DNA from: Candidatus Buchananbacteria bacterium
GTDB lineage: Bacteria > Patescibacteriota > Patescibacteriia > CAIXNZ01
Assembly (NCBI GenBank): GCA_014729025.1
Contig: WJKP01000045.1
Location: 20,015 to 84,014 of the forward strand
Reading direction: 5' to 3'
DNA: 64,000 bases
Every line of letters starts with the position of its first letter. The first letter of the stretch is position 1. This document shows, piece after piece, positions 8,937 to 59,395 of this stretch. The translations under genes were made by a program, and so were the position numbers. The notes beneath the pieces are model-generated. The model was not told the origin of the DNA, searched no databases, and saw nothing but the letters and a program-made list of their open reading frames with translations.

Positions 8937-10172
8937 ATGAAAAAAACAAAAAAATTAATTTTTCTGTTAATTTTATGCTTATTGATTTTAAGCTGCAATT
9001 TTAGCGTTGCCTCAGAAACAAATTATGATTTATATTCTGATGATTCAGAAATTCAAGATCTGAATCAAAAAATCAAAAATAATCAAAATAAAATAGAAAA
9101 TTTAAAAAAAGCTACTGAAGAATATGCGCAAAAAATTGAAGAATACAGAGATAAGGCTGCTTCTTTAAAAAATCAAATTTCTTTACTGGATAATCAAATC
9201 TTAAAATTAGAATTGGATATAAAAACAACACAATTGCAAATAGATAAAATAAAACTGGAAATAGAATCAATGGAATTTCAAATTGATAAAGAAGAAAAAG
9301 ATATTGAACTGCAAAAAAATAATTTAATTGAATATATTAAATTAATAGATCAAACTGATCAAAAATCATATTTAGAAATTTTAATTCTTAATAATTCGTT
9401 TGCTGAATTTTTCAACCAATTAAATTATTTGGAGGAAATTCAAAATAATATTAAAAATTCTGTTGATCGGCTTAAATTATTAAAGGAGGCGATTGAAGTT
9501 CAAAGAGCTGATAAAGTAACTCGTCAAGAAGAATTAGAAGAGCTAAAACAAGAGCAGGAGGCACAAGAAGAAAAATTAAAACAAGAAAACAAAGCTAAAG
9601 AAATTTTACTTCTAGAAACAAAATCTTCAGAAATTCAATTTGAAAGACTTTTGGTTGAAACCAGGCAAAGGCAAGAAGCTATTGGTACTGACATTGTTGA
9701 CATTAAACATAAAATTGAAGACCGGATAGAAAGACTAAGAAGTGGTAGTACCTCACCAAAAACAACTTTGCTTAGCTGGCCAATTCCTGCCCCTCATACT
9801 GTAACGGCTTATTTTCATGACCCTGATTATCCTTATCGTTATATTTTTGAACATCCGGCTATTGATTTAAGAGCCAGTCAAGGCACAGCCATTACAGCCC
9901 CGGCACCTGGCTATGTCGCTAGAATTAAAGATGCAGGCTATGGCTATAGTTATATAATTTTGATTCATGATAATAATATTTCTACAGTCTATGGTCATGT
10001 CAGTGCCATGTATGTTACTGAAGACACTTTTGTTGACACAGGTGATGTTATTGGTTTAACAGGCGGAATGCCCGGTACGCTAGGCGCTGGTAATTTGTCA
10101 ACCGGACCTCATTTGCATTTTGAAGTTAGATTAAACGGTATTCCTGTAAATCCTTTGGAATATTTGCCTTAA
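8937..10172 (+). CDS. Secreted coiled-coil M23 (LytM/EnvC-like) metalloendopeptidase
   Basis: A signal peptide is followed by a long heptad coiled coil (QDLNQKIKNNQNKIENLKK...). The C-terminal M23 motifs are HPAIDL (HxxxD) and GPHLHFEVR (HxH). Confidence 0.8.
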   Translation: MKKTKKLIFLLILCLLILSCNFSVASETNYDLYSDDSEIQDLNQKIKNNQNKIENLKKATEEYAQKIEEYRDKAASLKNQISLLDNQILKLELDIKTTQLQIDKIKLEIESMEFQIDKEEKDIELQKNNLIEYIKLIDQTDQKSYLEILILNNSFAEFFNQLNYLEEIQNNIKNSVDRLKLLKEAIEVQRADKVTRQEELEELKQEQEAQEEKLKQENKAKEILLLETKSSEIQFERLLVETRQRQEAIGTDIVDIKHKIEDRIERLRSGSTSPKTTLLSWPIPAPHTVTAYFHDPDYPYRYIFEHPAIDLRASQGTAITAPAPGYVARIKDAGYGYSYIILIHDNNISTVYGHVSAMYVTEDTFVDTGDVIGLTGGMPGTLGAGNLSTGPHLHFEVRLNGIPVNPLEYLP

Positions 10173-10194
10173 TTATAAAAATATAAAAAAAATA

Positions 10195-11235
10195 ATGAAA
10201 TCTAAAAATTTTATTAATAATAAAATTTTTCTTATTACTGGTATTATATTGCTAAGCTATATTTTTTTATTTACCTCAAATTTAAAAGCAGCTTCCCCCA
10301 CAAAACAGGCTGAATTAACCCTACAAGTTCCTTTACTTGGTTATACGAAAGCTTCGGGTATAGCAGAATATATAGGTAAAATATATGAAGCATCACTTTA
10401 TATTATAGTACCGATTGTTATTGTTATAATAATATTTGCTGGTATTAAATGGATTTTTGCTGGGGGAGATGTATCTAAAATAAAAGAAGCTAAAAAATAT
10501 ATTACCAGTGCTTTTATTGGTTTAACTATAGCCCTTTTAAGTTATGTTATTTTATCATTTATTGGTATAACTGAATTAGGGACACCTGAAATTAAGCATA
10601 TTGAAGAAATAGAATCACCTGATATTTTTAGCGCTCCACCAACTGGGTTTAATGTTAGCGCACCAGGTGTTATTCCTGGCGATATTTATTGTCCTAAATC
10701 AGGAGGTGCTGCATCCATGGAAAAAATAGCCAAATCAGCAGTTGGTAGGGTTACTTATAGAATGGGAGGGAAAATCTGGAACGGACCGCCTTATACTGCT
10801 GATAGTAAGGATTGCGGAGTCGCTCCTTGTAAATCTTTTTGTCCAACAGGAACTGTTTGCCTTGACTGTTCTGGCTTTGTGAGTTTTGTATATAAATGTG
10901 GTGGTTTAAAAGGCCCCCCTTCATATACTGGCTCGATGTTTGGTTGTAATTGCAGTAAAAGTGAAAAAATTAATAATGTTGGACCCAACTCAATAAACGG
11001 TAAAACATTAGTCCCTGGTGATTTTGTTGGTTATCCTTCTGGCTGTAAACACGGAGTCGGCCATGTTTACATTTATGTTGGCGGTGGAACCATATTTGAA
11101 AGCCATGGCGGTGGCGGAACTTCAAACCCCAATAGTGGCAGACATCCTGGTAAAGCTATTTTAGGCACACCTTTTAATTCTCACCGCTGGGTAGGCGCTG
11201 GCAAACCTAAATGCGTGGTTAGAATTAATCCTTAA
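10195..11235 (+). CDS. Secreted protein with a VirB2/TrbC-pilin-like N-terminal two-helix module fused to a Cys-rich NlpC/P60 peptidase domain (paralog 1 of 3)
   Basis: The N-terminal module is LQVPLLGYTKASGIAEYIGKIYEASLYIIVPIVIVIIIFAGIKWIFAGG...FIGLTIALLSYVILSFIGI. The C-terminus carries the NlpC/P60 catalytic Cys in CLDCSGFVSFVYKCGG and His in GHVYIYVGGGTIFESHGG. Confidence 0.7.
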   Translation: MKSKNFINNKIFLITGIILLSYIFLFTSNLKAASPTKQAELTLQVPLLGYTKASGIAEYIGKIYEASLYIIVPIVIVIIIFAGIKWIFAGGDVSKIKEAKKYITSAFIGLTIALLSYVILSFIGITELGTPEIKHIEEIESPDIFSAPPTGFNVSAPGVIPGDIYCPKSGGAASMEKIAKSAVGRVTYRMGGKIWNGPPYTADSKDCGVAPCKSFCPTGTVCLDCSGFVSFVYKCGGLKGPPSYTGSMFGCNCSKSEKINNVGPNSINGKTLVPGDFVGYPSGCKHGVGHVYIYVGGGTIFESHGGGGTSNPNSGRHPGKAILGTPFNSHRWVGAGKPKCVVRINP

Positions 11236-11241
11236 ATTAAT

Positions 11242-12195
11242 ATGAAATTTAAAAAAATAAAATTAACAATATTTTTTTCTGTTATTTTTTTATCCGTTAA
11301 ACCATTAGTTGGGTTAGCCACAACAGCAGAAACAGCTAAGTTAAAATTGCAAGTACCTTTATTAGATTACACGGAAGCAAGCAACATAGCCGAATACATC
11401 GGTAATATTTATACCGCAGTTTTATATATTATTGTTCCAATTATAATTGTTGTAATAATTTTTTCTGGTATTTTATGGGTTATAGCAGGTGGCAATCAAG
11501 AATTAATCAATAAAGCTAAAAGTCGAATTTTACATGGATTTATTGGTTTAGGTATTGCTTTATTTAGTTATGTTTTACTTTCTTTTGTTGGAATAAAAGA
11601 AATAACAACACCGGGTATCGCTAAAATTGATCCGGTAAAAGGACAATACATAATTATCGATGGAGAAGTTTTATCTGTTGATGAAGCTATGTCAAAACTT
11701 CCACCAGAAAGAAGGGGGAAAATGAGTGCTTTTGATGCTGCCAGCTGTCCCAAAGGACAAACAACATTTGAGGTCTTCTTCACAAATTATTATTTTCCAC
11801 AATATGGAGAATCTTATGGCAATAACGACTTTTTTTGTAATGTTGGCATGCAGTGCAGCTGCCCCAAAGGCAAAGATACAAGTAGACAATGTAATTATGG
11901 GAAACGATATAATCCCTGTGCTTATTTCCCGAAGGGAACGCCTTATTGTAATGCAACCGCCTCTGGCAGACCTCCCAAGGCGAATTATACGGTAGCTGCT
12001 GATGATTCCTGTTTTAAATATGGTTGCAAATTTACTATTCAAGGAAGCGCTTCTAATACATACGAAATTATGGATACTGGTAGTTGGATAAAAAACAGAC
12101 ACATGGATTTATTTGTTGGTACTAGAAGTAATATTAATAAAATCCATGGCGTATATACTATTAATTTATTAAACCCTTCAGCCTGCTTTAAATAA
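11242..12195 (+). CDS. Secreted protein with a pilin-like N-terminal module fused to a Cys-rich 3D (MltA/YuiC-like, DPBB) domain (paralog 2 of 3)
   Basis: The N-terminal module is LQVPLLDYTEASNIAEYIGNIYTAVLYIIVPIIIVVIIFSGILWVIAGG...FIGLGIALFSYVLLSFVGI. The C-terminal ...YEIMDTGSWIKNRHMDLFVGT resembles the conserved-Asp 3D domain. Confidence 0.6.
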   Translation: MKFKKIKLTIFFSVIFLSVKPLVGLATTAETAKLKLQVPLLDYTEASNIAEYIGNIYTAVLYIIVPIIIVVIIFSGILWVIAGGNQELINKAKSRILHGFIGLGIALFSYVLLSFVGIKEITTPGIAKIDPVKGQYIIIDGEVLSVDEAMSKLPPERRGKMSAFDAASCPKGQTTFEVFFTNYYFPQYGESYGNNDFFCNVGMQCSCPKGKDTSRQCNYGKRYNPCAYFPKGTPYCNATASGRPPKANYTVAADDSCFKYGCKFTIQGSASNTYEIMDTGSWIKNRHMDLFVGTRSNINKIHGVYTINLLNPSACFK

Positions 12196-12211
12196 AATTT
12201 TACGACACATC

Positions 12212-13357
12212 ATGAAAAACCATAAAAAAACAAAATATTTATTAATTATTTTTATTGTAATTTTTTTATTTTGTTTAGCTACAAACACTGTAAATGCTCA
12301 ACAGACTTGTGAACAAAAATATCCGGGTGGGGATGGCGTCTGTCGTGATACTTGTAAAGATTGGGAATCTGAAGATAGTGCTTCTGGACTTTGTTCTGAT
12401 GCAAATGAAACATGCTGTCACGAATTTGCTGAAACAGCCAGCTTACAACTACAAATACCGATTTTGCAATACACTGAATCTTCAAATGTTTATGAATATG
12501 CCGGTAATATTTATACTGCTGCTTTATATATTATAGTACCAATCGCAATTGTAGTTATTATTATATCCGGTATAATTTGGGCGTCTTCAGGCGGTAATGC
12601 CGAACAAATGCAATCCGCTAAAAATATGATTTTAAGGGCTTTTATTGCTCTTGGTATTGCACTTTTAAGTTATACGATTTTATCCGTTGTAGGTATTACC
12701 TCTATCGGCGGCGGGGCAGGGGTAACCTATCTAGAACCAACATCTGAAGAATACGGAATTTTAGAATTTGAAAACTCAGTTGGCATGTCAACAGGAGTCA
12801 CCGGTGCTAATTATCCCAGTATTGGGGGCAAATGTTTTCCAGTTGCCGCTAATAGTTTTAAAAAAATTAGCTGGAATTGGGGAAATAGAAGAAGTGATGG
12901 AAAAAGATGTCATGCCGGAATCGATATTTATACCAAAAGTCCTGGCCATGTTATTGCTATTGCTGAAGGGGTTATAACTGGAATCTCTAAAAATTTTTAT
13001 ACTTGCAAATCCGGCTGGACAGGCCCTGGCAAAGTAGGTAAAATTATGATTAACCACGGCATCCATACAATAAATTATGCTGAAATAGATGTTGATAAAT
13101 TTGCTGGTGGTATACGAATCGGTAAAACTGTAAAAGCCGGAGAATTTCTGGGTGTTGCCGGACATTGCGGTATGTTGCATTTTGAATTATATAAAGGTAA
13201 AACAAGCAACAGCACCCCCTGGTACCCACCTTCAGGTAAAAGGGTAGGAGGAGCAGCAAATTATTGCCGCGCCCATTATCTTTCTTCTAAGCCAGCGAAT
13301 CTACTTGATCCCTCAAAAACAATACAAGCTTTACAAAGTAATATGTGTGGTAAATAA
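12212..13357 (+). CDS. Secreted protein with a Cys-rich leader, a pilin-like module and a divergent M23 peptidase domain (paralog 3 of 3)
   Basis: The module LQIPILQYTESSNVYEYAGNIYTAALYIIVPIAIVVIIISGIIWASSGG...FIALGIALLSYTILSVVGI is present. The M23-like motifs are CHAGIDIY (HxxxD) and GHCGMLHFELY. The N-terminus has 6 Cys in 40 aa. Confidence 0.65.
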   Translation: MKNHKKTKYLLIIFIVIFLFCLATNTVNAQQTCEQKYPGGDGVCRDTCKDWESEDSASGLCSDANETCCHEFAETASLQLQIPILQYTESSNVYEYAGNIYTAALYIIVPIAIVVIIISGIIWASSGGNAEQMQSAKNMILRAFIALGIALLSYTILSVVGITSIGGGAGVTYLEPTSEEYGILEFENSVGMSTGVTGANYPSIGGKCFPVAANSFKKISWNWGNRRSDGKRCHAGIDIYTKSPGHVIAIAEGVITGISKNFYTCKSGWTGPGKVGKIMINHGIHTINYAEIDVDKFAGGIRIGKTVKAGEFLGVAGHCGMLHFELYKGKTSNSTPWYPPSGKRVGGAANYCRAHYLSSKPANLLDPSKTIQALQSNMCGK

Positions 13358-50814: not shown

Positions 50815-51783
50815 TTATTTTAATAATTTATTAACTCGTTTAATAATTTCTTGATAATTAATTTTATATTTATTTAATAATCTATCTGCACTGCCGGACT
50901 CGCCAAAACTGTCAGGCATACCTATTACCTCAAGAGGCACAGGATAATTTTGAGTCAAAACTTCAGCGATAGCGCTACCTAATCCTCCATTAACCTGGTG
51001 TTCTTCAATAGTCACAATTTTATTTGTTTTTTTAGCCGAAGCAATAATTGTTTTTTTGTCAATTGGTTTGATTGTATGACAATTAATTACTTCCGCTTTA
51101 ATTTTATTTTTAGCCAAATTTTCAGCTGCCATCAGCGCTTCATAAACCATAAGACCGCAAGCTATTATTGTCACGTCTTTACCTTTTTTTAAAACTTCAG
51201 CCTGGCCGATTTTAAAAGATTTTTGAGTATCAGTAAAAACCGGTGATTTAGCCCGGCCATAACGAATATAAACGGGGCCTTTAATTTTAGCAGCTGCCCT
51301 AACAGCTTTTTTAGTCTCCAAATAATCACTGGGCGCAATTACCGTCATATTCGGTAAAACTCGCATAATTGCCAGATCTTCCAACGCCTGATGCGTCGCA
51401 CCATCCGGTCCGACATTTAAACCGGCATGCGAACTGACTATTTTAACATTAGCATTATTATAACAAATTGAAACTCGAATTTGTTCCCAATTTCTACCCG
51501 GACTAAAAACCGCAAATGAGCACATAAACGGAATAAAACCGTCCAAAGCCAAACCAGTTGCCACACCAGCCATATTTTGCTCAGCCACGCCAACTTCAAA
51601 AAAACGTTTAGGGTATTTTTTGCCAAAGTCCAAACAGCGGGTTGATTCAGCCAAATCTGCTGAAACCGCAACAATCTTCTTGTTCTTTTTACCTAATTCT
51701 AATAACGCCTCGCCAAACGCATCACGGCAAGCTTTGCTTGAAATTTGAGAATTGAGATTTGATATTTTTTTGTTATTTGTCAT
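50815..51783 (-). CDS. Transketolase, C-terminal (pyrimidine-binding) subunit
   Basis: AFGEALLELGKKNKKIVAVSADL, FEVGVAEQNMAGVATGLALDG and HAGLNVGPDGATHQALEDLAIMRVLPN are present. Confidence 0.85.
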   Translation of the reverse strand: MTNNKKISNLNSQISSKACRDAFGEALLELGKKNKKIVAVSADLAESTRCLDFGKKYPKRFFEVGVAEQNMAGVATGLALDGFIPFMCSFAVFSPGRNWEQIRVSICYNNANVKIVSSHAGLNVGPDGATHQALEDLAIMRVLPNMTVIAPSDYLETKKAVRAAAKIKGPVYIRYGRAKSPVFTDTQKSFKIGQAEVLKKGKDVTIIACGLMVYEALMAAENLAKNKIKAEVINCHTIKPIDKKTIIASAKKTNKIVTIEEHQVNGGLGSAIAEVLTQNYPVPLEVIGMPDSFGESGSADRLLNKYKINYQEIIKRVNKLLK

Positions 51784-51793
51784 TTATTATTTA

Positions 51794-52627
51794 TTATTTC
51801 AAAGCGCCCTGTAACTCTTTCAATGCCCTCTCAGCCTCAATTTCAGAAGGTACTTTGCCGTGCCATTGCCATTTGTTTTCCATAAAACTAACACCTTTCC
51901 CCGGAATGGTATGGGCAATAATAACTTTGGGTTTATTTTTTATTTGCTTAGCTTTTTCTATGGATTTTAAAATTTGCTTCATATCATTACCATCAATTTG
52001 CTGCACATGCCATTTAAAAGCCTGATATTTTTCATATAAATTATTCAAAGGCATAATATTTTTTGTAAATCCGTCAATTTGTATCATGTTACGATCAACA
52101 ATAAAAATTAAATTATCTAATTTATATTTAGCAGCCGCCATAACAGCTTCCCAAGTCTGACCTTCATTATGTTCGCCATCACTGGTTATACAATAAACAA
52201 AATGCTTCTGTTTTTTTAATTTAGCTGCCAAAGCCATGCCAACTGCCACTGAGACACCCTGGCCCAAAGGACCAGAAGAATGCTCTAAAGCCGGGAAATC
52301 ATGATATGAAGGGTGTCCTTGCAAAGGAGAACCTAATTTTCTAAGTGTTTTTAATTTACTAATGGAAAAATAACCACTTCTGGCCATAGCGGCATAACGA
52401 ACAGGCACAACATGACCGTTTGATAAACATAAACGATCCCTTTTTTCCCATTTTGGCTTTTTCGGATCATGATTCAAAATATTAAAATACAAGGCAACAA
52501 AAATATCAGCCAAGCCCAAAGAACCGGCTGAATGGCCTGAACCTGCCTCAGCCAACATTTTTATAATATCTTGTCTAATAATATTAGCCTTTTCTTGTAA
52601 TTGCTTTACTTTATAACTTTTTTTCAT
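51794..52627 (-). CDS. Transketolase, N-terminal (TPP-binding) subunit
   Basis: GSGHSAGSLGLADIFVALYF, DRLCLSNGH and ITSDGEHNEGQTWEA are present. Confidence 0.85.
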   Translation of the reverse strand: MKKSYKVKQLQEKANIIRQDIIKMLAEAGSGHSAGSLGLADIFVALYFNILNHDPKKPKWEKRDRLCLSNGHVVPVRYAAMARSGYFSISKLKTLRKLGSPLQGHPSYHDFPALEHSSGPLGQGVSVAVGMALAAKLKKQKHFVYCITSDGEHNEGQTWEAVMAAAKYKLDNLIFIVDRNMIQIDGFTKNIMPLNNLYEKYQAFKWHVQQIDGNDMKQILKSIEKAKQIKNKPKVIIAHTIPGKGVSFMENKWQWHGKVPSEIEAERALKELQGALK

Positions 52628-52630
52628 AAA

Positions 52631-53071
52631 TTAAGCTGAATCAATCTTATTTTCTTTAGCCCATTTGGGGGTTACATACAAAGAACAATGACATCTACCC
52701 CATATTTCAATTTCACCCATATATAAATAACAAGGACAAATTATTTTTCTATCAGCCTCGGGATTATTGGATAAAACGCGACAGGGACAATAACATTGCT
52801 GGCCTTCTTTTAAATATTTTCCCATAGATTCAGCTAAACCTTTTAAAGTTTCTTCATTGGGATTTAATTTAATTTCATCTTGATATTTTGTTGCATTCAT
52901 CCATTTAACCTGGCGCTGCCAAGTATCTTTAAAAAATTCGAAATTAAGACTGTCAGGACTTATCTGATTAAAACTTTTCTGATTATGACAAAAAGGACAT
53001 TCACAAGGAGCTTTTTTATCACGATAAATATAACCACAAACTGAACATCGATATATTTTTATATCAGTCAT
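52631..53071 (-). CDS. Rubredoxin-domain fused ferredoxin:thioredoxin reductase catalytic-subunit-like (FTR-like) protein
   Basis: The N-terminal rubredoxin knuckles are CSVCGYIY...CPFC. The C-terminus CYCPCR-x14-CPC-x12-CHCSLYV matches the FtrC CPC...CPC...CHC signature. Confidence 0.65.
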   Translation of the reverse strand: MTDIKIYRCSVCGYIYRDKKAPCECPFCHNQKSFNQISPDSLNFEFFKDTWQRQVKWMNATKYQDEIKLNPNEETLKGLAESMGKYLKEGQQCYCPCRVLSNNPEADRKIICPCYLYMGEIEIWGRCHCSLYVTPKWAKENKIDSA

Positions 53072-54504: not shown

Positions 54505-56526
54505 TTATAATTCAATTATATCACCTTCTTTAACATTATTATTATTTTCCTCTGCTGAAGCCAGTAAATTAGCCGCTGGCAATTTTTCTTTTGTCGAGCC
54601 TTTTTCTGCTTTTTCTGCTTTTTCTTGAACTTGTTGTGAAGATTCTTTTTTCTCCGGAGCTAACACTTTTTCTTGTTCTACAGATTCTTTTTCTGCTTCA
54701 ACCGGTTGTGTTTTTTTAATTTCCTTTTGTATTTCTGGTCTTGAAATTTCTTGTTTGGTTGGCTGTACTGGCTTAGTTTCTTTTATTGTCTTTTGCTTGG
54801 CTAATCCTATGGGCTTATCTTCTTTAATTGGTTGGATTTTTTGAGGTTCAGACTGTTTTGCTGATTCCGATTTTTTTTCTTCAGGTGATTTACCTTTAAA
54901 ATCAACGGTTTTTTGCGAAATCTGTGATAAAGAAACAGCTTCTTGTTGTTGTTGCGTTTTTTCTTTACTCACTTCATCAGGTTTAACACCTATTTCTCCG
55001 CGGCGAGCTTTTTTAAGGCATTCTTTACAAAAAACTGGACGCACATTATCTGGCTTAAAAGGTACTTCAATTTCTTTTTTACAGCCAGAACAAACAGCTG
55101 GCCAGCCCTTATCTTTCTTTTTTTCATTTGATGTGGTTTCCGCCTCTCCTTGTTTTAATTTTTGCTCATTTGACTGTTGAGAAATCAGCTTACCTTTTCC
55201 TTCAACTTCCTTTTTGTCTTCAGTTATTACACCACTCCATCTTTTTATTTTATCTTCAACTACATTTTTGGGTTTAGCGTATCTTTCCCTGGAAACATTA
55301 ATAACTTTTTGTTCGTTACCCAAAGAATCACTATAAACCGGGGGTAACCCTCTAGCTGAAAATGGTTCAGAGGCTATCCCGTCAATCATTAATTTTAAAT
55401 AGATATGAAACTTTGGCAAAGCGACCAGATCTTCCTGAGTTAAATAAGGCATAAACTCTTTTTCTAAAAATTCAGCATCAGCTGCACCGACCCGAAAACA
55501 CATTAAAGTGCCGACATTACCAAAAACTGCCGGTCTAACTACCTCGCCTAATTGTTCTATATATTGATGAGCAATAATTAAATTCAAGCGATACTTACGA
55601 GCCTCTGATAAAATATCAGCAAAAGAATCGGTCGCAAAATTCTGAAATTCATCAACATATAAATAAAAATCTTTCCGATTATCTTCTGGAATATCAACCC
55701 GGCTCATAGCTGCCAACTGAATTTTTGTAACCATCATGGCACCAAGTAAAGCAGAAGCGTCTTCACCAATTCTCCCCTTGGAAAGATTTAGAATTAAAAT
55801 TTTATTTTCATCCATTACTTTTCTTAAATCAACTGCTGATTTAACCTGACCGACTACATTACGAATTAATGAAGTTGATAAAAACTGCCCCACCTTGTTT
55901 TGAATCGGTGAAACAACTTCTTGTAAAACTCTTTCATTCCATCTGGGAAATTCATCAACCCAAAAAGAACGAACTACCGGATCAGTAATTTTAGCTACTA
56001 CTTTTTTACGATATTCTTTATCAACCAACATACGGTTAATTCCCAATAAAGTACTATCTGGATATTCCAAAAGAGCCAAAATCGCATTTCTTAAAATATA
56101 TTCCAAACGAGGTCCCCAAGAATCAGCCCATAACTTTTTAAATACACCAATTAAACCAGAAGCAACCAAATGACGATGCTCAGAAGAAACTTTTTCCAAA
56201 ACATTAAATGAAATGGGATAATGCAAATCAGACGGATTAAAATAAATAACATCATTAATACGACTGCTTGGTATCCAGCTCAACATCTTTTCGGCAGTAT
56301 CACCATGAGGATCAACATAACAAACCCCTTTACCGGCAATAATATCCGAATAAACCATATTTTCAATCAAAGTTGTTTTCCCCATACCGGTTTTACCAAT
56401 AATATAAACGTGACGACGCCGATCATCTTCTTTAATCCCAAAAATCCGCTCTCTGTTTCTAAAAGTTGTTACAGCAAAAGGTGTGATTCCGCTTTCCACT
56501 GCTTTTTTAATTTGTTCTGTTACCAT
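54505..56526 (-). CDS. VirD4/TraG/TrwB-like type IV coupling-protein ATPase domain protein. It has no N-terminal TM, a C-terminal Zn ribbon and a K/E-rich tail.
   Basis: Walker A is HVYIIGKTGMGKTTL and Walker B is FYLYVDEFQNF. RKYRLNLIIAHQYIEQL and an all-alpha-domain-like AVFGNVGTLMCFRVGAADAEFLEKEF are present. The C-terminal zinc ribbon is CSGCKKEIEVPFKPDNVRPVFCKECLKK. Confidence 0.55.
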   Translation of the reverse strand: MVTEQIKKAVESGITPFAVTTFRNRERIFGIKEDDRRRHVYIIGKTGMGKTTLIENMVYSDIIAGKGVCYVDPHGDTAEKMLSWIPSSRINDVIYFNPSDLHYPISFNVLEKVSSEHRHLVASGLIGVFKKLWADSWGPRLEYILRNAILALLEYPDSTLLGINRMLVDKEYRKKVVAKITDPVVRSFWVDEFPRWNERVLQEVVSPIQNKVGQFLSTSLIRNVVGQVKSAVDLRKVMDENKILILNLSKGRIGEDASALLGAMMVTKIQLAAMSRVDIPEDNRKDFYLYVDEFQNFATDSFADILSEARKYRLNLIIAHQYIEQLGEVVRPAVFGNVGTLMCFRVGAADAEFLEKEFMPYLTQEDLVALPKFHIYLKLMIDGIASEPFSARGLPPVYSDSLGNEQKVINVSRERYAKPKNVVEDKIKRWSGVITEDKKEVEGKGKLISQQSNEQKLKQGEAETTSNEKKKDKGWPAVCSGCKKEIEVPFKPDNVRPVFCKECLKKARRGEIGVKPDEVSKEKTQQQQEAVSLSQISQKTVDFKGKSPEEKKSESAKQSEPQKIQPIKEDKPIGLAKQKTIKETKPVQPTKQEISRPEIQKEIKKTQPVEAEKESVEQEKVLAPEKKESSQQVQEKAEKAEKGSTKEKLPAANLLASAEENNNNVKEGDIIEL

Positions 56527-56538
56527 ATTTAAATAAAA

Positions 56539-58221
56539 TTAATCAATAAATGGAATATTACCAGGAATAGCTCCTGTCGATTTATCTGATTCAGAATCCT
56601 CTTTTTCTTCTTTTAGTTTTGTAGATTCTGTTTCTTTTTTGGTTTCCTTTGCTTTTTGGGGTTCAGCTTCTTGTTTTTTTATTTCTGCTAATTTTTCTTT
56701 TTCTTCTTTAGCTATTTCTGCCAATCTATCTTCTCTGACCGGCCGTGTCTTTTTAAATTTATCTTTATCTTTGGCAAATTGCATTTCAAAATCATCACTA
56801 TCATAATCAAAAGTCGGCTCAAATTGTTTTTCTTCTTCAGGTGTTTCTTGGTGAGCTTGTTCTGCCCTATCTTCAACCGGTTTTAATGGGGCTTCTTGAA
56901 CGGGTAACCCAACCGGCGCTGCTGCTTTGGTAAATTCTGTTTTCTTTAATAAAGGCGCTTTAACATACATACTTGGGAAATGCCACAAAGAAGCTAATTC
57001 TTCACTACATAATGGTTTAGCTGGTACACCAACAACTGTATCGCGGTTAATATAAGCTCGAATAAATTGATTTTTACGCCATTTTTTACGAGCTTGAATT
57101 AAAATATATTGAGGTGAATTAGTGCCAGTTTCTTTTAACATCGGCCTTAAACCATTAGTATTGACATCTGTCCATTGCTTTATAGAACCAATCATCGCAT
57201 TAACACCCAATGTTTTATTCATTTTATCTTTTTCTGCTACATAAAGATAACGTATCTTAGTATTAAAAGCCCATTTGGCTGTTTTTCTTTCAATACCATC
57301 AACTATTTCTTTTTGAGCTGAAGTTAAATTCATTATACTGGGCTGTTTTTCATCTACTTTAGCCTCTTCACCGCCCCCTAAATTCACCCCAGCTAATTGA
57401 TCTGTAAATTCATTTATAAAATCAGCTGGAAATTTAAACAGACTTCCAAAAAATCCTTGTTTTGGCTTTGATTTAATACCTATAACTTTATTTACCTCTT
57501 CTTTACCTTGTTTAATGCCCCAATCAACCGCCAAAGGAGTTAAAATATATTGAACCCAAATTTGCTCGCCTGGACCTATAGAACTCATTGTTTCTAATAA
57601 TGCTGCCATAGGATCAACAAAAGTTTCAGAAAAACGGTGCTCAAATTTTTGCCATGATTTTAAAGGAATCAACGGATTAGCTGAAAGTGTAAATTCTACA
57701 CCCCAAATATCATGTGTATCATTGGGATAATCTTTAGGAACAGAATTAACATAATCTTCAACCTCAGTAATTTCCGCATCAGGAAATTGAGAATAAACAG
57801 CCGCCTCAACCAAATTACGCCAATCACCTGGACAACGAATTAGAAACTGAATATTGCCTTCAATACTAACCAACTCAACTGATAATGAACGCATGAACTC
57901 ACCTTCAATATATGTCCCCCATTTAGTAAAAGTTGTATGAGCGCCTTGTAAGTGATCAAAAAAGTTTTCCATCGCCTGAATACTTTGCTCATTTCTTTTA
58001 GGGACATCTATAGCCAAAATTACCGGACCAGGCTGTTTACTAGCCCATTTTCCGCCAATATATAAACGATATTCAGGATATATTAAATAACGCAAAACAA
58101 TATAAACAAATAAAACCCAGAGCCAATACTTAAATAACAGGATATATAATATCCCAAAAGTTGATTGACCTTCAAACTGGGCTAAAAATTGATAAAAATA
58201 AGTTAAATCTATTTCAATCAT
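56539..58221 (-). CDS. hypothetical membrane-anchored protein, probable partner of the downstream coupling ATPase
   Basis: The N-terminal TM is ILYILLFKYWLWVLFVYIVL. A ~400-aa globular domain and a K/E-rich tail follow. Only 12 nt separate it from the ATPase gene. Confidence 0.45.
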   Translation of the reverse strand: MIEIDLTYFYQFLAQFEGQSTFGILYILLFKYWLWVLFVYIVLRYLIYPEYRLYIGGKWASKQPGPVILAIDVPKRNEQSIQAMENFFDHLQGAHTTFTKWGTYIEGEFMRSLSVELVSIEGNIQFLIRCPGDWRNLVEAAVYSQFPDAEITEVEDYVNSVPKDYPNDTHDIWGVEFTLSANPLIPLKSWQKFEHRFSETFVDPMAALLETMSSIGPGEQIWVQYILTPLAVDWGIKQGKEEVNKVIGIKSKPKQGFFGSLFKFPADFINEFTDQLAGVNLGGGEEAKVDEKQPSIMNLTSAQKEIVDGIERKTAKWAFNTKIRYLYVAEKDKMNKTLGVNAMIGSIKQWTDVNTNGLRPMLKETGTNSPQYILIQARKKWRKNQFIRAYINRDTVVGVPAKPLCSEELASLWHFPSMYVKAPLLKKTEFTKAAAPVGLPVQEAPLKPVEDRAEQAHQETPEEEKQFEPTFDYDSDDFEMQFAKDKDKFKKTRPVREDRLAEIAKEEKEKLAEIKKQEAEPQKAKETKKETESTKLKEEKEDSESDKSTGAIPGNIPFID

Positions 58222-58324
58222 AATTATTATATATTATACTAAATTTTAATTGTTTTTACTAGTTTAAAAATAACAAAAAACCTCTTTAGGAGGTTTTTTG
58301 TTAAATTGTGTATTTGATTTATTA

Positions 58325-59395
58325 TTATATTAATTCATAACGTCCATTTTCTAGTCTTTTAAACTTATCTTTGTTCATTAAGACCAAAGTAATGGTTGTT
58401 TTTTGCACTAACCGCTGTTTTAAAACTTCTTCAGCTAATTCTTTTTTGGACATCGGGCCATTATTCTTTAAGATGTTTTCAATAATATCAGCAACCGTAC
58501 CTTCTTGATAACCCCATTCACGTAAAGCATAAATACCACGGCCAACCAGTACATATTTATCATCTAAAATTAATTCGTTATGAACTGTTGCCGGATGAGC
58601 TTTTTTTCTATCAAAATTAGCCTGATTAATCAATTCAGCCAATTCTTCGAAATGTAACGGACGATTTTCTCTTAACATTACCAAATAAGCTTTATCAGTC
58701 ATTCTTTTGGGTTTAATAGTATTCCAGTGATAAACACCCCATTGACCTAAAATATTTCTATTTAAATCTTGTCTAATACTTAATAAAGCTTCTAAAATTG
58801 CCAAATCTTCGGCTTGTCTTTCTTTTATATAATCGTAATATTTATGTGATTGAAATTGAGACGATAAATCCTCTAAATGTAATGGCTTACCATGATTTTC
58901 AATTAATTCTTTCAAAGCCGAAGCAATAGCTACTGCCTGGTCCAAATCAACATCTTGCAAGGCAAAAACTACATGGTGATCATTTAAATCAACGACTCTT
59001 TTAATATTACCGGCAAAAATATTAGCCAAAATAAAATTCAAAGCTTTTTCTTCTACTTCAAGCTGTTCTTGTAATAATTTTTCCTGTAAATGCCATTCTG
59101 CCATAATACCGCCATGTGATTTTAAATAATCTAAAATAATAGATTCCAGATCACGAACCGGTAATTTGGCTCTATCATAATCCATATTTTTAATTTTTTT
59201 CAAACCTTCTCTTTCGATTTGTCGAACACGTTCACGCGTAATATTAAAATCCTTACCAATTTGCTCCAAAGTGTGTTTTGGATAATCTGCTAAGGCATTT
59301 CTTTTTTGCAAGACTTCTTGTTCTCTATCAGATAAATTAGCCAATAAGGCATTAACCAAGTCTGCATAACTAATTGTTTTTATTTTTGCTGTCAT
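58325..59395 (-). CDS. Sigma-70 region-4-like HTH protein with C-terminal HARE-HTH/winged-helix domains (no region 2)
   Basis: The N-terminus LSDREQEVLQKRNALADYPKHTLEQIGKDFNITRERVRQIEREGLKKIK matches sigma region 4.2. The C-terminal HARE-HTH signature is KAHPATVHNELILDDKYVLVGRGIYALREWGY, with a second HARE-like element KDKFKRLENGRYELI. Confidence 0.6.
   Translation of the reverse strand: MTAKIKTISYADLVNALLANLSDREQEVLQKRNALADYPKHTLEQIGKDFNITRERVRQIEREGLKKIKNMDYDRAKLPVRDLESIILDYLKSHGGIMAEWHLQEKLLQEQLEVEEKALNFILANIFAGNIKRVVDLNDHHVVFALQDVDLDQAVAIASALKELIENHGKPLHLEDLSSQFQSHKYYDYIKERQAEDLAILEALLSIRQDLNRNILGQWGVYHWNTIKPKRMTDKAYLVMLRENRPLHFEELAELINQANFDRKKAHPATVHNELILDDKYVLVGRGIYALREWGYQEGTVADIIENILKNNGPMSKKELAEEVLKQRLVQKTTITLVLMNKDKFKRLENGRYELI

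Follow-up and report, generated by a model that had tools for sequence, protein, structure and literature searches.

In a 64,000-nt stretch of DNA from Candidatus Buchananbacteria (GTDB lineage Bacteria; Patescibacteriota; Patescibacteriia; CAIXNZ01), hereafter the window (assembly GCA_014729025.1, contig WJKP01000045.1, positions 20,015–84,014 of the forward strand), a gene for a membrane protein of the DUF8128 family is directly followed by a gene for an ATPase without a transmembrane (TM) helix (Table 1). The original prediction regarded the two as a coupling-protein-like ATPase split into anchor and motor genes. The locus therefore raises the question of whether both genes encode a single machine, and which process such a machine would serve. 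The spacer between them contains no terminator-like site and is consistent with their co-transcription, while a hairpin located between the DUF8128 gene and the upstream sigma70_r4/HARE-HTH gene suggests that a separate transcription unit begins with the pair. Promoter-like sites were not enriched over shuffled sequences (42 vs 40.1 expected), and thus no promoter is claimed.

Table 1. Coordinates of the features of the DUF8128–ATPase locus, numbered from the first nucleotide of the window.
Feature	Position	Strand	Description or basis
DUF8128 protein gene	56539..58221	(-)	560 aa; TM helix, domain of predicted VirB4-N-terminal-domain-like fold, tail
ATPase gene	54505..56526	(-)	673 aa; no TM helix; VirB4/VirD4 clade by predicted fold
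CxxC-x17-CxxC treble-clef zinc finger (ATPase residues 479-503)	55018..55092	(-)	zf_Tbcl_2 and TIGR04272 matches; Cys conservation
K/E/Q-rich low-complexity ATPase tail (residues 504-673)	54505..55017	(-)	Composition, alignment
12-nt spacer between the DUF8128 and ATPase genes	56527..56538	(-)	No terminator-like site
Terminator-like hairpin	58271..58303	(-)	14-15 bp stem followed by a T run; pattern match only

The ATPase and its membrane partner

The three motifs originally ascribed to the ATPase (GKTGMGKT, FYLYVDEFQNF, and RKYRLNLIIAHQ) are all present in it. The protein carries Walker A at residues 44–51, Walker B at 287–293, an all-alpha insertion at ~115–240 that comprises eight helices in the predicted model, and a conserved core that extends to ~432. 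The key Walker A/B residues are invariant across 60 homologs, in keeping with an FtsK/HerA-related P-loop NTPase, and the core is 62–88% identical across lineages, whereas the DUF8128 partner shows 33–67% identity. Judged by its invariant motifs and conserved core, the ATPase is active and important. Its hydropathy (a maximum Kyte–Doolittle 19-residue mean of 1.30) stays below TM grade, which agrees with the predicted lack of an anchor. The C-terminal ribbon likewise held up, with C479, C482, C500, and C503 forming a CxxC-x17-CxxC finger that scored above the cutoffs of both zf_Tbcl_2 (44.8 bits, cutoff 27) and TIGR04272 (46.3 bits, cutoff 36). Three of these four cysteines are invariant and the remaining one is at least 90% conserved (60 homologs), and members of this zinc-finger family have been shown experimentally to bind zinc (PMC12704099). 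The predicted K/E-rich tail was also recovered (18.9% K and 15.5% E over residues 441–673), and the alignment revealed a recurring G-[EQ]-x-[IV]-x-[LF] motif that closes it.

The ATPase matched TrwB_AAD_bind (34.0 bits, Pfam cutoff 20.5) and TraG-D_C (23.1 bits, cutoff 22). A best match to a HerA- or FtsK-like protein would speak against a coupling-protein affinity; the best sequence matches were TrwB and DotL. Comparison of the predicted fold with solved structures gave scores of 23.3 for the VirB4 C-terminal domain (CTD), 23.1 for DptH, 21.4 for TrwB, and 21.3 for DotL; HerA scored lower and FtsK far lower. Neither an FtsK_SpoIIIE motor domain, as expected of an FtsK/SpoIIIE or TcpA-type protein, nor an above-threshold HerA central domain with a NurA-type partner was found. 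The curated full-length NCBIfam cutoffs were missed as well (at best 43.9 bits vs 366 for SXT_TraD; 34.2 vs 250 for CD1115; 19.9 vs 643 for TIGR00929), and the VirB4_CagE match covers the P-loop only. The modeled fold of the ATPase lies within the VirB4/VirD4 clade.

The DUF8128 protein contains a single TM segment (~residues 21–47), whose flanking charges suggest an N-out/C-in topology, followed by a cytoplasmic alpha/beta domain (~66–425, ~350 aa) and a disordered tail (20% E, 17% K), in which a DYDxDxFExxFAKDK motif is conserved and a PxNLPF motif occupies the C-terminus. The TM helix and the K/E-rich tail had been anticipated, but the ~400-aa domain described as unrecognised is a known family: PF26449 (DUF8128) is precomputed on close homologs of the 560-aa protein (62–69% identical and lower). 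A scan of the protein itself against local Pfam and NCBIfam gave no match, since the PF26449 model was missing from that Pfam copy. The VirB4 sequence models (AAA_10, CagE_TrbE_VirB, and TIGR00929) did not match it either, and sequence searches of the PDB with the single sequence and with the profile returned nothing meaningful. At the level of predicted fold, however, the cytoplasmic domain corresponds to the VirB4 N-terminal domain, and the DUF8128 protein would thus be more than an anchor.

Natural fusions and genomic setting

That the two genes encode two halves of one membrane-anchored motor is strongly supported. The split into anchor and motor is backed by natural single-chain proteins, found in metagenomic and CPR lineages, in which an N-terminal TM helix is followed by DUF8128 and the ATPase, and which match PF26449, PF10412, PF01935, and PF12696. 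The DUF8128 profile maps to positions 37–384 of the fused family (E 1.5e-61) and the ATPase profile to positions 381–813 (E 1e-192), head-to-tail. These fusions argue for a physical DUF8128–ATPase complex. In uncultivated lineages, Candidatus Gracilibacteria among them (P0477-P0519), the architecture equals the sum of both window genes, and the ATPase part bears the same TrwB_AAD_bind and TraG-D_C signatures; unlike the split pair, these proteins consist of one chain and lack the CxxC-x17-CxxC finger, which was present in 0 of the 22 fused proteins checked. The fused genes of Gracilibacteria and other lineages are chromosomal orphans among housekeeping genes.

The same domain order recurs in fusions encoded on plasmids and ICE-like elements of Bacillaceae and Paenibacillaceae (WP_229762801.1, NZ_CP086062.1; WP_003349917.1, pBM69), which were reached only via the ATPase match and profile comparison. 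Here, hhalign aligned the DUF8128-like domain with a probability of 96.5–97% (E ~1e-10), PF26449 being precomputed on many members, and the ATPase part directly after it with 99.9% (E ~1e-33). These proteins differ from the split pair in being one polypeptide with neither an N-terminal TM helix nor a zinc finger, and their ATPase is only ~29% identical to that of the window. In Bacillus plasmids, the fused gene heads a Tn916/pCW3-type conjugation module (Replic_Relax, TcpC, TcpE, AAA_10 VirB4, and an SLT/NlpC-P60 hydrolase), where it adjoins the relaxase-type Replic_Relax gene and occupies the place of the DNA-transfer coupling ATPase. None of the Bacillaceae/Paenibacillaceae fusions appears to have been studied experimentally in the literature. 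The plasmid pLS20 was rejected as a Bacillus context, its type IV coupling protein (T4CP) being of the conventional two-TM type. The Bradyrhizobium and Rhodococcus homologs carry N-terminal extensions in which no DUF8128 similarity was detectable.

In the split form, the partner gene is a conserved neighbor, as the original prediction required: a same-strand ATPase gene lies directly downstream of DUF8128 in 60 of the 76 species-level loci with sequence long enough to judge adjacency. The named lineages with DUF8128, whether split or fused, are Buchanan-, Uhr-, Falkow-, Magasanik-, Kerfeld-, Moran-, Parcu-, and Gracilibacteria as well as Minisyncoccia; for divergent DUF8128 representatives, the names of the cluster members gave no taxonomy. 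The typical gene order is SecD-SecF-(sigma/HARE)-DUF8128-ATPase, amid housekeeping genes. The idea that the pair is a T4SS remnant did not survive; it is instead inherited vertically as a conserved chromosomal module, and the constraint on it is strong. Relaxase and T4SS genes were absent beside the pair in three related CPR loci with called-gene tables, and VirB3, VirB6, and VirB8 genes did not adjoin it in the window or in the CPR loci examined. No DUF8128 relatives emerged from plasmids (tblastn) or from viral contigs (pattern scan).

As predicted, the pilin-like modules at 10195–13357 proved to be three proteins in which T4SS_pilin (PF18895) is joined to cell-wall hydrolase domains; they lie 41 kb from the pair. 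A scan of 30 larger ORFs of the window revealed neither a relaxase nor a VirB4, in line with the earlier reading, and no VirB6 or VirB8.

Candidate functions

The best explanation of these data is a distinct sub-family of T4CP-like ATPases whose single-chain form is TM-DUF8128-ATPase. Canonical T4CPs (VirD4, TrwB, TraD, DotL) have N-terminal TM helices of their own, lack a VirB4-N-domain-like module, and as a rule show genetic linkage to a relaxase or a T4SS. In the Patescibacteria pair, the adjacent DUF8128 protein contributes the TM helix, and linkage to relaxase or virB4 genes is seen not in the pair but in its fused Bacillus relatives. By description, the window ATPase resembles pIP501 TraJ, a coupling ATPase without a TM helix for which TraI has been proposed as membrane anchor, a precedent for anchoring in trans (PMC12857230); pIP501 TraI, however, is a small two-TM protein of a plasmid-borne conjugative system and lacks a large cytoplasmic domain such as that of DUF8128.

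We propose that the N-terminus of the DUF8128 protein lies outside while its domain faces the cytoplasm, and that a hexamer of the soluble ATPase would dock on that domain; the conserved short motifs ending both disordered tails may help join the separate halves. The complex would spend ATP to feed a macromolecular substrate, most likely nucleic acid or nucleoprotein recruited by the zinc finger and the charged tail, into a membrane channel. Since the genome carries T4SS pilin genes, the most likely channel would be the chromosomal monoderm-type T4SS encoded elsewhere in Patescibacteria. The pair might then be a T4SS coupling ATPase kept after relaxase loss, for epibiont–host transfer rather than conjugation. 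We see about an even chance that this split membrane-anchored motor serves as the coupling ATPase of the Patescibacteria T4SS. The role is suggested by the position of the fused Bacillus relative in a conjugation module; the orphan fused relatives in Gracilibacteria and other lineages count against it, as do the lack of VirB4, VirB6, VirB8, and a relaxase among the 30 larger ORFs of the window and the published findings on unlinked and dispensable T4CP homologs given below. In the only species in which genes were tested genome-wide, the T4SS of Patescibacteria proved essential (PMC11665869, PMC12102498).

It is possible, though on the doubtful side, that the pair is instead a domesticated, T4SS-independent translocase, pumping DNA or RNA alone or through another channel, of which ComEC and the division septum are examples; it might thereby segregate or clear chromosomes or take up nucleic acids of the host. 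The conserved Sec-linked gene order in a housekeeping context free of T4SS genes, the very strong conservation of the ATPase, the equally orphaned fused relatives, and the gain of the zinc finger specifically in the split CPR form all favor this. So does the literature, which leaves exaptation open: only 148 of 5,713 Patescibacteria T4CP homologs lie near virB4, and in Southlakia epibionticum ML1 the T4CP homolog, which may not belong to the split DUF8128–ATPase sub-family, is dispensable for epibiotic growth while other T4SS genes are essential (PMC12102498). Uptake of host RNA has moreover been reported for a cultured Patescibacterium (bioRxiv 10.64898/2026.06.21.733656). On the other hand, the closest setting that can be characterised is a conjugation module, and even true conjugative systems often have T4CP genes unlinked from virB4.

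A DUF8128 N-domain joined to the ATPase, with a VirB3-like TM helix, would reproduce the VirB4 architecture, and the pair might then be a divergent split VirB4 that gives the T4SS a further VirB4-type ATPase for assembly or energising. We regard this as improbable: the sequence models favor VirD4/TraD/TrwB, with AAA_10 below its cutoff (15.3 bits vs 27.5), and hhalign of both pair profiles against a real AAA_10 VirB4 gave a probability of only 2–3%. The margin of VirB4-CTD over TrwB and DotL in the fold comparison is small, and the pair differs from VirB4/TrwK (with VirB3) by its two-gene split. In addition, the Bacillus modules contain a genuine VirB4 besides the fusion, which has a relaxase-type gene as its neighbor. 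The SecD-SecF genes, found upstream in 37 of the 58 loci whose sequence reaches far enough in that direction, and YidC directly downstream of the pair in one locus (L004) raise the prospect of an accessory to Sec/YidC protein export, which we consider very unlikely. Long co-directional housekeeping arrays surround the locus in every lineage sampled, SecF and the pair have the terminator-like hairpin and a further gene between them in the window, and SecF was not found upstream in 14 of the 44 loci with an adjacent ATPase and enough upstream sequence; to our knowledge, no member of the ATPase clade acts with Sec. Just as remote is an anti-phage or conflict ATPase of the MADS mad8-like or DptH-like kind, with DUF8128 as sensor or anchor. 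Mad8 and the C-terminal domain of DptH/DndH have other partners and contexts, and no defence genes adjoin the window pair; methyltransferase, nuclease, and other defence genes were absent beside the pair in the three loci with called-gene tables, and PADLOC gave no match for DUF8128. The vertical, syntenic, and highly conserved inheritance is also unlike that of a defence island.

Implications for Patescibacteria

Published work has counted the T4CP homologs of Patescibacteria; the DUF8128 partner, the split, and the zinc finger are new here. A more far-reaching interpretation, which we hold to be rather unlikely, is that the pair is a domesticated coupling-protein descendant, now a core T4SS-independent nucleic-acid motor, and at the same time a surviving VirB4/VirD4 intermediate. 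If true, it might be the cytoplasmic engine that pulls host RNA or DNA into the epibiont, with the lineage-specific zinc finger and charged tail as its nucleic-acid handle, and the combination of a VirB4-type N-domain with a VirD4-type motor in one family would represent that surviving intermediate.

A large share of bacterial diversity falls to the Patescibacteria, which rely on host cells. For an orphan ATPase of these organisms we propose an architecture of two subunits, the second being a conserved partner whose predicted fold is VirB4-N-domain-like; natural fusions argue for a complex of both, and a conjugative relative gives the proposed function its footing. Such a mixed VirB4-like/VirD4-like lineage bears on the divergence of both signature T4SS ATPases, and what was a vague T4CP-homolog annotation becomes experimentally tractable.

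The tandem gene pair and its neighbourhood

Both predicted ORFs were borne out, with their coordinates, on the minus strand of a chromosomal stretch with a GC content of ~31%. The 30 larger ORFs scanned in the window are otherwise mostly housekeeping genes, including those for aminoacyl-tRNA synthetases, F-type ATP synthase, MreB/PBP2/FtsQ, an AddA-type helicase-nuclease, pentose-phosphate enzymes, and SecD/SecF. Among them we detected neither VirB4 nor VirB6, nor any relaxase, which agrees with the original remark that no relaxase or VirB4 is recognisable in the window. The pilin-like modules recognized earlier at 10195-13357 proved to be three T4SS_pilin (PF18895) membrane modules, each fused to a different cell-wall hydrolase (NlpC/P60, 3D, or M23), and look like VirB2-like pilin paralogs joined to VirB1-like enzymes.

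Features of the pair and its surroundings in the window
Feature	Position	Strand	Details
M23 peptidase gene, then three tandem T4SS_pilin genes	8937-13357	+	
Transketolase, split into two genes	50815-53071	-	N-terminal and C-terminal halves
ATPase gene	54505-56526	-	673 aa
Upstream DUF8128 gene	56539-58221	-	560 aa; 12 nt from ATPase gene
Terminator-like hairpin 5' of DUF8128 gene	58271-58303		perfect 14-15 bp inverted repeat, T runs on both strands
Sigma-70 region 4 protein	58325-59395	-	three HARE-HTH matches

Judged from its sequence, the inverted repeat between the sigma/HARE gene and the DUF8128 gene is a candidate bidirectional terminator; no such hairpin lies inside the 12-nt gap of the pair. 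The sigma70_r4/HARE-HTH protein weakly matches MzaA, an MZA defence sigma factor, and its gene immediately precedes DUF8128 in 31 of the 58 loci whose upstream sequence is long enough to tell. Beside the split transketolase lies a small cysteine-rich protein, whose homolog at locus L003 is annotated RUBY_RBDX and FeThRed_B (rubredoxin-like and ferredoxin-thioredoxin reductase beta-like).

In three divergent homologs (37-49% identity) the next gene downstream is always that of the ATPase, and the order SecD-SecF-(sigma70_r4/HARE-HTH)-DUF8128-ATPase, set among housekeeping genes, is common to all three. Scanning the GTDB species representatives identified at least 519 loci. Among the best 80 of these, 76 had enough downstream sequence, and the ATPase followed immediately on the same strand in 60 (79%); two of the remaining 16 were examined, and both had unrelated genes downstream. 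The ATPases have a median identity of 69% to the window protein, and the DUF8128 proteins one of 37%. The pair is vertically conserved and chromosomal in Patescibacteria. Many of the GTDB species-representative records with this Patescibacteria-type locus (L007, L009, L012, L014, and others) bear the title 'uncultured Gammaproteobacteria bacterium'; the taxonomy of these deposited MAGs is probably mislabelled or a placeholder.

The motor belongs to the VirB4/VirD4 clade

The ATPase is 100% identical to a protein (P0121) deposited from a Candidatus Buchananbacteria MAG. The original description of this protein held in each respect: Walker A/B and sensor-like motifs are present, no segment reaches TM-grade hydrophobicity, and a CxxC-x17-CxxC finger (C479/C482/C500/C503) precedes a K/E-rich tail. 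Pfam matches exceeded their cutoffs for TrwB_AAD_bind (34.0 bits, cutoff 20.5), TraG-D_C (23.1, cutoff 22), and zf_Tbcl_2 (44.8, cutoff 27), while NCBIfam gave partial matches to TraD, CD1115, and CedB far under the curated cutoffs. The only PDB sequence matches were TrwB and DotL. In the AF2 model (pLDDT 81.8), Walker A and Walker B are separated by an eight-helix insertion (~115-240), which matches the position of the all-alpha domain in type IV coupling proteins (T4CPs).

Structural comparison ranked the VirB4 C-terminal domain (4ag5) first (23.3), followed by the DptH/DndH C-domain (23.1), TrwB (21.4), DotL (21.3), HerA (18.3), Cag-beta (18.0), TcpA (12.9), and FtsK (12.7). This ranking places the ATPase in the VirB4/VirD4 clade and outside FtsK and TcpA. 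By fold alone the VirB4 C-terminal domain and VirD4 are inseparable, but the sequence models lean towards VirD4. Named Patescibacteria lineages share 62-88% identity in the core (residues 1-432). Of the four finger cysteines, three never vary in 60 homologs and the other reaches at least 90% conservation; the tail is variable except for a G[EQ]x[IV]x[LF] motif that recurs at its C-terminus. Small CxxC-x17-CxxC proteins bind zinc in experiments (PMC12704099).

The pair as separated halves of one protein family

The upstream protein has the predicted N-terminal TM helix (~residues 21-47) and E/K-rich tail; K/R flanks of 0 before and 3 after the helix suggest an N-out/C-in topology. Its central domain, originally called unrecognised, corresponds in homologs to Pfam PF26449 (DUF8128). 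An exhaustive profile search retrieved 3,093 clusters at 50% identity, 1,071 of them at E <= 1e-30; all of the best 150 are 340-690 aa long. In the AF2 model (pLDDT 81.8, core mostly >90), the TM helix leads into an alpha/beta domain (~66-412), after which come a disordered stretch and a long helix. Foldseek, independently of the other fold search, ranked 13 TrwK chains first. The top 60 structural matches contained no other P-loop ATPase and no VirB4 entry limited to the C-terminal domain, so the modelled domain appears to match the non-ATPase N-terminal domain of VirB4; zero sequence-level similarity to VirB4 was found.

Single-chain relatives connect the two proteins. A tblastn search of plasmids with the ATPase returned 474 records, all <60% identity. 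The homologs of Bacillus sp. BC1-43 (904 aa) and B. methanolicus pBM69 (833 aa) are each one protein, matching the DUF8128 profile at residues ~54-305 (hhalign 96.5-97%, E ~1e-10) and the ATPase profile at ~323-716 (99.9%, E ~1e-33); on a B. subtilis plasmid the fused gene is broken into two ORFs. The fused Bacillus gene opens a module encoding Replic_Relax, TcpC, TcpE, an 847-aa AAA_10 VirB4, a large membrane protein, and an SLT+NlpC/P60 hydrolase. This module represents a Tn916/ICEBs1/pCW3-type conjugation system, in which the fused protein occupies the place of the coupling protein. Used as a query, it revealed precomputed PF26449 matches on many Bacillaceae and Paenibacillaceae proteins. 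ATPase matches on plasmids H2 (NZ_CP045273.1, Priestia megaterium) and H5 (NZ_CP062975.1, Pontibacillus) fall in three pieces (~2.4 kb per ~400 aa of query), which suggests large insertions, possibly inteins, in these motor domains. The closest non-CPR ATPase relative (L086; 41.7% identity), on a Sulfitobacter plasmid (NZ_CP081110.1, 99994-101181), is a 395-aa core without N-domain, TM helix, or finger, surrounded by transposase and recombinase genes.

A second fused group (750-1,130 aa), including one protein from Candidatus Gracilibacteria, carries PF26449 with PF10412, PF01935, PF02534, and PF12696; most members have one N-terminal TM helix, with Walker A at ~390-490. As the ATPase downstream of this single helix is cytoplasmic, the intervening DUF8128 domain must be cytoplasmic too. 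The window's two profiles lie head-to-tail along this group: its positions 37-384 correspond to DUF8128 columns 75-459 (E 1.5e-61), and its positions 381-813 to ATPase columns 16-449 (E 1e-192). The window's genes are therefore separated halves of a TM-DUF8128-ATPase family, which upholds the original idea of a coupling protein split into anchor and motor. We checked 22 fused proteins for the zinc finger, and it is missing from every one.

Function and relation to known systems

The abundance of the ATPase family in Patescibacteria is already known, with 5,713 VirD4-type T4CP homologs, just 148 of which lie close to virB4, in 2,918 genomes (Quinonero-Coronel et al. 2025, PMC12102498), as is DUF8128 as an uncharacterised Pfam entry. 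The portions of that article available to us describe no partner gene, missing TM segment, zinc finger, or fusions, and a literature search for 'DUF8128' returned no paper. As far as the literature shows, the pairing, the partner's modelled VirB4-N-domain-like fold, the fused/split series linking the pair to the conjugative coupling-protein slot, and the finger specific to the split form seem to be new.

The main rival reading, an exapted translocase independent of any T4SS, strikes us as rather unlikely. The ML1 T4CP homolog is non-essential, and the authors of that study left exaptation open (PMC12102498); the fused genes of Gracilibacteria and two other lineages are orphans in housekeeping surroundings. 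A 2026 preprint also reports that host RNA is taken up, by a route not yet resolved (bioRxiv 10.64898/2026.06.21.733656). What the Patescibacteria T4SS does is, according to PMC11665869, unknown. The conjugative position of the fused Bacillus protein points to coupling, and in a T4SS review pIP501 offers a precedent for a TM-less coupling protein, TraJ, with a separately encoded membrane protein, TraI, as its proposed anchor (PMC12857230). We give an even chance to the best-supported function, that of a coupling-type ATPase serving the monoderm-type T4SS of this lineage. The motor itself carries VirD4-type sequence signatures and falls in the VirB4/VirD4 ATPase clade; together with the DUF8128 half it would form a membrane-tethered hexameric motor, to which the zinc finger and charged tail may recruit a nucleic-acid or nucleoprotein substrate.
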